A stretch of DNA of 64,000 nt from Escherichia coli (GCF_003334305.1 NZ_QOWS01000014.1), one strand, 5' to 3'. Counted from the stretch's first letter, positions 10,591 through 11,178 are shown. Made by a program: numbers and translations. The notes: generated by a model from the sequence alone, not told the origin.

Positions 10591-11075
10591 TTGTGACCAT
10601 AAAACATTTATCAAAAATCTACTACTAGCATAGCAAAGCTACAATTAACATAACCTTAATAGACCCAACATAAAGAATAATCTGAATAGCTGCTCTATTT
10701 ATTTCCGCTTGTTCAAGTTAAATATTTCCGCGCATCGATTAAAGATGATGCGTCGTTTTCTGCGATGGGAATAGTCAAAAAAGAAAAACCAAGTCTTTTT
10801 TGATGACAAAATGCAATCAAGGAAAAATTATTTTATTTTTTAACTAGATACAACAATCATCTTAACGAAGTATATAATATAAATCGTCAACCTATGCTCA
10901 TGTTAGATTATTTTTTGAGCGCACAGCCGCAGCTAACACCATTGCAATTAACAAATTTGCATCAATCCACCATCAATTTACACACATTATTATGTGATAA
11001 TTGCCAACCGCTAAATATGCGTTTTGTTATCTATGTATAAAAACAGCAACTTCAATGTCTTAATGGCAGTTTTTC

Positions 11076-11089
11076 TTGATTTTAATCAG
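11076..11089. promoter_or_regulatory. FNR-like site (TTGAT-N4-ATCAg) upstream of dcuC
   Basis: TTGATtttaATCAG matches the FNR consensus TTGAT-N4-ATCAA at 9 of 10 positions, about 90 bp upstream of the dcuC ATG. dcuC is known to be anaerobically induced. Confidence 0.4.
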
Positions 11090-11178
11090 CATTCATCGCC
11101 AATTTATTGGGCATATTTTTTCCTTAAGCTTTAGGAATTTTTTATTATTTACTTTGGGGCCTGGAGACAGGAAAAATT

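Follow-up and report, generated by a model that had tools for sequence, protein, structure and literature searches.

A probable common control region, with two gene-proximal promoters and a variable spacer, in the long gap between pagP and dcuC of Escherichia coli

Introduction

Several kinds of described control region can be set beside a long, AT-rich gap between divergent genes. Class II FNR promoters, such as those of dmsA, yfiD and the narG-type cores, carry the FNR box at -41.5. Regions that are silenced by H-NS and counter-silenced by other proteins include those of pagC and ugtL in Salmonella, where SlyA and PhoP are involved, bgl in Escherichia coli, and the 750-bp "sensory integration region" of gadE. 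A third kind is the "switched", or fast-evolving, intergenic region that has been described in E. coli (Piggy, PMC5890482).

The gap between pagP and dcuC of E. coli can be compared with each of these. A preliminary description, made from the sequence, reported an unusually long, AT-rich, non-coding interval with an FNR-like site and left most of it unexplained, with the suggestion that it could carry a long 5′ leader, a small RNA (sRNA) or binding sites for nucleoid proteins. The analysis described here draws on the anatomy of the locus, its conservation pattern, and published protein occupancies and genetics, and the exact transcription starts are predicted from these. The gap is most likely the common divergent control region of pagP and dcuC, in which two gene-proximal promoters are separated by a neutral spacer that is bound by H-NS. 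Each component has already been reported for K-12. We have not seen the neutral, hypervariable centre described, though the pattern is of a known type.

Layout of the locus

The window, which is the whole 64,000-nucleotide stretch of E. coli DNA that was analysed (GCF_003334305.1, NZ_QOWS01000014.1), contains a gap of 588 bp at 10591-11178. On one side lies pagP (crcA), which encodes the lipid A palmitoyltransferase on the minus strand (10030-10590), and on the other side lies dcuC, which encodes the anaerobic C4-dicarboxylate transporter on the plus strand (11179-12564). Both genes were assigned from the ORF list and RefSeq annotation, for pagP that of strain E2865 and of K-12. The gene names and the gap coordinates of the preliminary description are exact, as pagP ends at 10590 and dcuC starts at 11179. 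The gap is 100% identical to that of strain E2865 and 99.3% identical to that of K-12 derivatives, and K-12 MG1655 has a gap of equal length at NC_000913.3 655969-656556 with no annotated feature. RefSeq annotation inside the gap is empty in every genome sampled, E2865 and K-12 included.

Among 41 intergenic gaps in the 40.6 kb around the locus, this gap ranks first in length, ahead of two of 379 and 371 bp. Its GC content is 0.31, compared to about 0.50 for the flanking genes, and it therefore has the AT-rich tract by which H-NS-silenced regions are recognised. The unusual length and the AT-rich composition given in the preliminary description are thus borne out.

Published positions in U00096.2 were converted by subtraction from 666370 (window position = 666370 - coordinate), with the FNR site as a check on this conversion.

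The dcuC promoter

The FNR box TTGATTTTAATCAG lies on the plus strand at 11076-11089 and, as TTGAT-TTTA-ATCAG, agrees with the consensus TTGAT-N4-ATCAA at 9 of 10 positions. A bare match of this kind is unremarkable: allowing one mismatch at most, 7 matches occur in the window where 2.5 would be expected. The box is taken as real because of its position, its conservation and published ChIP data, rather than the consensus match by itself. The sample used for comparison with other species comprised 80 pagP loci; dcuC is the divergent neighbour in 45 of these, across a gap of 281-1024 bp. A box of the form TTGAT-N4-(A/G)TCAG is present 99-113 bp 5′ of the dcuC ATG in 43 of the 45 syntenic loci, from about ten genera that include Escherichia, Citrobacter, Salmonella, Enterobacter, Lelliottia, Klebsiella and Raoultella. 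The spacing from the box to a CA(C/T)ATT hexamer is exactly 22 nt in all 43 loci that have the box.

This hexamer, which is CATATT at 11112-11117 (plus strand) in E. coli and CACATT in other genera, is assigned as the dcuC -10 element by its fixed spacing and by a published sigma70 peak. If CA(C/T)ATT is the -10 element, then the box is centred at about -41.5, as in the class II FNR geometry, and transcription would start at about 11124. The predicted 5′ UTR of about 55 nt (11124-11178, plus strand) includes the Shine-Dalgarno sequence AGGA at 11169-11172 and has no stable fold, with a minimum free energy of -6.8 kcal/mol and a z-score of +1.66. A long 5′ leader, one of the earlier suggestions, is made unlikely by the conserved geometry, which points to a short and unstructured leader.

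The published data of Myers 2013 (PMC3688515) place FNR and RNA polymerase at this promoter. [quoted passage not shown] A sigma70 ChIP-seq peak at 655,235 converts to about 11135, at the dcuC promoter. The same study classes dcuC as activated by FNR and reports expression 20-fold higher without oxygen (aerobic to anaerobic ratio of 0.05). It also flags dcuC with the remark "TSS not in peak region", which suggests that some catalogue has the dcuC start elsewhere. The FNR-like site of the preliminary description is therefore conserved, coincides with published FNR calls by ChIP-seq and PWM, and lies upstream of a gene known to be activated by FNR. The dcuC part of the gap behaves as a class II FNR promoter, with the -41.5 position predicted from the spacing.

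The pagP promoter

Upstream of the pagP ATG, at a distance of 35-75 bp, is a block that is conserved across genera. Within it, a -10-like hexamer, TATGCT (10627-10632, minus strand), coincides with a sigma70 ChIP-seq peak of Myers 2013 (PMC3688515) at 655,742 (U00096.2), which converts to 10628 at the pagP promoter. Citrobacter amalonaticus has TATAAT at the position of the E. coli TATGCT.

A direct repeat, TATTAAG-GTTA-TGTTAA (10645-10661, minus strand), lies over the pagP -35 region and precedes TATGCT by 13 nt on the pagP strand. It is a candidate PhoP box on the basis of motif scans, conservation and the position given in the literature, and its GTTAAG core is kept in all 14 aligned genera. 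A second PhoP-like direct repeat, TCTTTA-TGTTG-GGTCTA (10660-10676, minus strand), was found by motif scan with 2 mismatches. Against the PhoP consensus (T/G)GTTTA-N5-(T/G)GTTTA, these two best candidates carry 2-3 mismatches, and repeats with at most three mismatches number 7, compared to 4.0 in shuffled sequences. As the repeats are not above chance by sequence, the assignment to PhoP rests on conservation and on the literature. According to Harari 2010, the crcA start and its PhoP site are 32 bp apart. This distance fits a pagP start at about 10620 with a leader some 30 nt long, and the predicted 5′ UTR (10591-10621, minus strand) is consistent with the -10-like hexamer, the sigma70 peak and the distance to the PhoP site.

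The 10645-10661 repeat is also the best match in the gap to an ArcA-like TGTTAA-N5-TGTTAA pattern. An ArcA site for dcuC/crcA was predicted by PWM, with no ChIP peak, by Park 2013 (PMC3798270), and pagP expression is 3.4-fold higher without oxygen (Myers 2013, PMC3688515).

H-NS and other proteins on the gap

Two adjoining regions of H-NS enrichment by ChIP-chip, 654,590-655,558 and 655,584-656,283 (U00096.2), were reported by Myers 2013 (PMC3688515, Table S3) for cells in anaerobic glucose minimal medium. Converted to the window, the regions lie within 10087-11780 and span the entire gap, along with the 5′ portions of pagP and dcuC. FNR occupancy at the locus is 0.87 in the wild type and 0.86 in an hns/stpA double mutant (Myers 2013, PMC3688515), which suggests that the FNR site is not masked by H-NS. 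The spacer was also flagged as bound by H-NS by Shimada 2014, who observed in vitro binding of RNA polymerase holoenzyme to it.

The effect of H-NS on pagP is known from genetics. A screen by Chalabaev 2014 for derepression of pagP-lacZ yielded hns; expression of the fusion rose 18-fold in an hns deletion, and the deletion was complemented by plasmid-borne hns. In the same work, SlyA was shown to counter-silence pagP and to be required for its induction in biofilm. RcsB-GadE was added as a further inducer of pagP by Szczesny 2018. The suggestion that nucleoid proteins bind the gap thus proved sound, given that H-NS regions cover it and that H-NS represses pagP 18-fold. The pagP part of the gap behaves as an H-NS-silenced and counter-silenced PhoP promoter, for which the occupancy and the derepression are taken from the literature.

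Motif scans add little to these assignments. The high-affinity H-NS nucleation motif tCG(t/a)T(a/t)AATT (TCGATAAATT-like) has no match in the gap at up to one mismatch, and at up to two mismatches there are 6 matches in the gap compared to 6.0 in shuffled sequences. Consensus scans of the gap for SlyA, H-NS, GadE, RcsB, RpoN, CRP, IHF and NarL gave no result that convincingly exceeds shuffled sequences. The assignment of PhoP, H-NS, SlyA, RcsB and GadE to sites in the gap is literature-based, because consensus matches at most marginally beat shuffled sequences. RpoN holoenzyme and NtrC have been reported to bind the gap in vitro, with the RpoN peak from gSELEX; a consensus scan of the gap for sigma54-like -24/-12 elements gave none below 3 mismatches. 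None of the published IHF regions falls within the gap. A Fis-like degenerate pattern is enriched in the gap, and this pattern is too loose for interpretation.

Conservation and the variable centre

Nucleotide diversity (pi) was calculated from nine E. coli alleles. The pagP-proximal segment (10591-10740), which holds the core promoter and upstream regulatory DNA, has a pi of 0.035 and is 73% identical within Escherichia. The dcuC-proximal segment (10941-11178) has a pi of 0.025, and its part at 10941-11075 is constrained regulatory DNA 5′ of dcuC. Between these segments, the AT-rich, E. coli-specific spacer at 10741-10940 is hypervariable and shows no sequence-level constraint, with a pi of 0.116, a value inflated by the choice of the nine alleles for their spread of gap identity. 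The four-fold degenerate sites of the flanking genes have a pooled pi of 0.072 (0.064 for dcuC and 0.101 for pagP).

The comparison was repeated by megablast on the full set of 5,426 complete genomes. Of these, 3,542 have a match to the central 200 bp, whereas the adjacent 238 bp on the dcuC side is matched in 5,379, with at least 95% identity in every genome that carries it. Similarly, a 588-bp piece of dcuC has at least 95% identity in all 5,415 genomes that carry it.

Comparison with other species gives the same division. With BLASTN, only 11070-11158 aligns to other genera, and 10595-10705 (73%) and 10946-11174 (79-80%) align to E. whittamii and another Escherichia species. By global alignment, the centre is 55-58% identical to that of E. 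whittamii, compared to 51% for shuffled sequences, and the dcuC third codon positions of the species pair used for this comparison differ by 34%. The gaps of Klebsiella and Raoultella, at 281-294 bp, are essentially the two promoter blocks and have no central segment. An ATTAACA motif in the DNA upstream of dcuC recurs in 17 of the 45 syntenic loci.

The patterns of diversity suggest purifying selection on about 390 of the 588 bp, which would be extended promoter DNA of the two genes, and a roughly neutral rate of evolution for about 200 bp. The statement that most of the interval is unexplained was therefore too strong; what stands of it is a centre of about 200 bp that, by its pi, behaves as a neutral spacer, and the rest appears to be constrained promoter DNA.

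The GC content of the central 200 bp, 32%, is close to the equilibrium expected for unconstrained DNA under the AT-biased mutation of E. coli, and binding of H-NS there may thus be a by-product rather than a selected function. Two other origins for the centre were considered and rejected. A relic of a gene that some Enterobacter and Kosakonia carry in their longer gaps is discounted, for want of any similarity to the E. coli centre. A mobile element, phage or plasmid is also discounted, as no phage relatives of the centre were found and the matches to plasmid records are E. coli chromosomal DNA, either mislabelled or in large chromosome-derived records. Internal repeats in the centre are limited to chance matches of 12-13 nt.

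The centre could instead be a selected regulatory polymorphism, in which deep classes of alleles would be kept, or swapped by recombination, and would set the H-NS silencing of pagP in a lineage-specific manner. In about one third of the complete genomes the divergence of the centre is beyond the reach of megablast, with flanks that stay at least 95% identical, and pairwise divergence reaches 18% in the centre compared to 10% at four-fold sites. Recombination is suggested by one allele, L089, that combines window-type PagP and DcuC proteins with a centre that is 12.6% diverged, and by another, L086, that shows the reverse. Yet the pi of the centre is near that of the four-fold sites of pagP and only 1.6 times the pooled value, even with the diversity of the gap inflated by the way the alleles were picked, so that neutrality with ordinary recombination suffices. 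Selected polymorphism is consequently judged unlikely, and the neutral spacer remains the preferred reading of the centre.

A broader version of this idea is somewhat speculative and still rather improbable. The centre at 10741-10940 might be a lineage-variable H-NS silencer module, whose recombining allele classes set thresholds for pagP expression and lipid A palmitoylation, or the source of an H-NS-repressed transcript, Ssr31 (see below), that becomes visible when repression is relieved, or both. Possibly, the 10645-10661 repeat would also serve both PhoP and ArcA, which would explain the anaerobic co-induction of pagP and dcuC. If this were true, then variation in the spacer would lead to strain-to-strain differences in lipid A palmitoylation, which affects innate immune recognition and resistance to antimicrobial peptides.

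Candidate RNAs, distal promoters and small proteins

The one positive sign of an independent sRNA is Ssr31, a candidate on the pagP strand with a length of about 295 nt. Its prediction, in the gap between pagP and dcuC in Shigella flexneri 301, was based on a promoter and a terminator, and it was positive by RT-PCR. The in vitro binding of RNA polymerase holoenzymes to the spacer would also fit such a transcript. RT-PCR is blind to the difference between an sRNA and read-through, spurious transcripts or DNA carry-over, and neither a Northern blot nor a 5′ end was reported for Ssr31. The covariance-model search that the preliminary description had proposed was run with Rfam 15 over 9500-11700 at E-values up to 10, and its matches in the gap are at chance level (E of 1.9 and 3.8). 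A strong match to the cspA family in the scanned region is cspE, which lies outside of the gap.

Folding and covariation were also assessed. One window of 120 nt, 10801-10920 on the minus strand, folds with a z-score of -2.45, but the mean over 26 such windows on both strands is -0.2, and the window in question sits in the neutral, hypervariable segment. In an alignment of 10790-10930 from eight E. coli alleles, the covariation term is only -0.7 kcal/mol; double changes are seen at two base pairs, both from one pair of related alleles. The sole terminator-like hairpin, found by consensus scan at 10730-10753, is on the plus strand, opposite to Ssr31, and is lost between alleles. This hairpin was judged non-functional, given that it has three uncompensated substitutions in the 3′ arm in the JA0072-type allele, a fold that varies by allele, and a z-score of -1.0.

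Transcript and occupancy data bear on the same question. No third sigma70 ChIP-seq peak is found in the gap, with none at 6553xx-6556xx (Myers 2013, PMC3688515), at a published ChIP resolution of about 100-300 bp that is too coarse for a weak internal promoter. Adams 2021, Yan 2018 and Kim 2012 have no entry for the pagP-dcuC locus in their transcription start supplements. Even inside the genus Escherichia, the centre lacks conservation. The Rfam matches are at chance level, stability and covariation give no signal, and neither a conserved terminator nor a third sigma70 peak is present; an sRNA or other structured RNA is thus very unlikely, and the neutral spacer is again preferred.

A related proposal is that a distal promoter in the centre also drives dcuC or pagP, with a long regulatory leader of 240-350 nt. 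A sigma70-like sequence, ATGACA-17-AATTAT, is present at 10803-10831 on the plus strand and was found by consensus scan. Shimada 2014 proposed this sequence as a "constitutive promoter" for dcuC and TTAAGA-17-TAAAAA as one for pagP, and the remark of Myers 2013 (PMC3688515) on a start outside of the peak region could be read in the same way. Promoter-like matches in the region number 2, though, compared to 4.7 expected from shuffled sequences, and both hexamers of ATGACA-17-AATTAT vary between natural alleles in a segment that evolves neutrally. In vivo, sigma70 peaks are found solely at the gene-proximal promoters. The supposed leader has no structure signal, and Klebsiella and Raoultella function with their short gaps that do not have this segment. 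The 10803-10831 sequence is unlikely to be functional, and a distal promoter for either gene is highly improbable; the data favor expression from the two gene-proximal promoters.

The gap has seven ORFs of 20-48 amino acids, which include an ATG-started ORF of 48 amino acids at 10894-11040, so that a small protein gene might be hidden there. Each ORF of more than 20 amino acids is frameshifted, interrupted or without a start in at least one of the nine natural E. coli alleles, and the 48-amino-acid ORF has a frameshift in two alleles and begins with ACG, rather than ATG, in a third. The Shine-Dalgarno context is unconvincing, and RefSeq annotates no such gene in the sampled genomes. A small protein is therefore extremely unlikely, and the earlier view that the gap has no convincing ORF holds. 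In short, as an sRNA, a riboswitch or a small-protein gene, the gap fails every test that was run.

Model of the control region

The preferred reading, a common control region with two gene-proximal promoters, would work as follows. Without oxygen, FNR bound at -41.5 would recruit RNA polymerase to the weak -10 element and thereby turn on dcuC, with about 135 bp of putative regulatory DNA, constrained between alleles, upstream of the FNR promoter. On the other side, PhoP would activate pagP through the box over the -35 region, upstream of which lies about 100 bp of DNA that is also predicted to be regulatory from its constraint. H-NS would polymerise along the AT-rich tract into both genes and keep pagP expression low. 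This silence could be lifted by SlyA or RcsB-GadE, which would counter H-NS, or by activation by PhoP. FNR would still reach its own site despite the coat of H-NS. The central 200 bp would contribute, at most, length and AT-richness.

The significance of this model is small beyond the tidying of annotation. The locus does exemplify how a long, AT-rich bacterial intergenic region can be split, with a constrained block near each promoter and a neutral spacer coated by H-NS between the two, and it indicates that a long, empty gap is by itself no ground for expecting an sRNA.

Comparison with known systems

The gap shares with switched intergenic regions its conserved flanks, its diverged core and its mosaic of intergenic and genic alleles. 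It differs in that the alleles of the centre can be aligned, at about 82-87% identity, and have diverged at an approximately neutral rate, and in that neither replacement by unrelated sequence nor an origin in a mobile element is indicated.

The dcuC side is like class II FNR promoters in its 9/10 box and its fixed spacing to the -10 element, as well as in its published FNR occupancy, its dependence on FNR and its 20-fold anaerobic rise. Unlike those promoters, it has a weak -10 element (CATATT or CACATT), and its start is predicted from geometry. It also lies within a region enriched in H-NS, where FNR occupancy is equal with or without H-NS and StpA.

The H-NS-silenced and counter-silenced regions are close kin of the gap. 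The likeness includes a long AT-rich tract, H-NS that reaches into the 5′ ends of the coding sequences, and an 18-fold derepression in an hns mutant. It extends to the relief of pagP by SlyA and RcsB-GadE, with PhoP as the specific activator. In contrast to those regions, the gap serves a gene, pagP, that is ancestral in enterobacteria rather than horizontally acquired, and the H-NS nucleation motif does not exceed chance. Moreover, the silenced tract is held in common with a divergent gene, dcuC, that escapes silencing under anaerobic conditions.

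Variation in the intergenic region

The alleles of the centre of the pagP-dcuC gap, at window positions 10741-10940, are mosaic relative to those of the flanking genes. The PagP and DcuC proteins of DSM 103246 (locus L089) are the same as those of the window, yet its gap centre has diverged by 12.6%. Conversely, LD67-1 (locus L086) carries a window-like centre, with 2.7% divergence, between diverged flanks, with 9.6% divergence at pagP third positions. The mosaic alleles of these two loci point to recombination breakpoints within or adjoining the gap.

In the urinary isolate E. 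coli MINF_8D (locus L004), an IS1 element interrupts the gap past its initial 150 bp. The stretch concerned, 4001-5250 of that locus, corresponds to window positions 10591-10740 onward. The pagP promoter block is retained; dcuC, dpiA and dpiB are absent, such that IS1 adjoins citC.

Some Enterobacter, Kosakonia and Silvania have gaps that are far longer and of higher GC content (0.42-0.47), and pagP-dcuC gaps of 830-1024 bp are present in Kosakonia oryziphila (L056) and in three other compared loci (L053, L061 and L031). ORF fragments in the K. oryziphila gap look like parts of a membrane protein of the RND efflux-pump type and so hint at inserted or decayed genes there. None of these long gaps resembles the E. 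coli gap centre.

Repeated and structured elements

The 12-mer AGGAAAAATTAT, which comprises the Shine-Dalgarno and start region of dcuC at 11169-11180, has an identical copy at 10820-10831, within the neutrally evolving centre and 349 bp upstream. The base that follows the upstream copy is T rather than G, and this copy therefore lacks a start codon. The duplication is probably a chance match within AT-rich DNA.

Beyond pagP, an Rfam scan matched cspE with its 5' and 3' flanks (9598-10040, minus strand) to the full length of the cspA thermoregulator model, RF01766, at 124 bits (E 6e-33) against a gathering score of 78. Several low-scoring matches to leader and sRNA models at 9597-9700 in the same scan only mirror a strong terminator hairpin, AAAACCCGCTTAATCAGCGGGTTTTTTTT, which separates cspE from crcB and acts in both directions.

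Matches to the FNR consensus and response to oxygen

With one mismatch allowed, TTGAT-N4-ATCAA matches the window at six positions (7046, 20293, 28110, 30078, 41719 and 63805) in addition to the site upstream of dcuC (11076-11089, plus strand). This total of seven compares with 2.5 expected from shuffled sequences, and was reached in 2 of 100 shuffles.

Under anaerobiosis, pagP and dcuC are induced together, and pagP is absent from the list of FNR-dependent genes (Myers 2013, PMC3688515). The PhoP-box candidate at 10645-10661 (minus strand) is also the best ArcA-like direct repeat in a motif scan of the gap. At the pagP promoter (10628; K-12 655,742, U00096.2), the published table of oxygen-dependent peaks gives sigma70 ChIP-seq occupancies of 37 versus 366, and the aerobic/anaerobic expression ratio of crcA (pagP) is 0.29 (Myers 2013 Tables S2/S12, PMC3688515).
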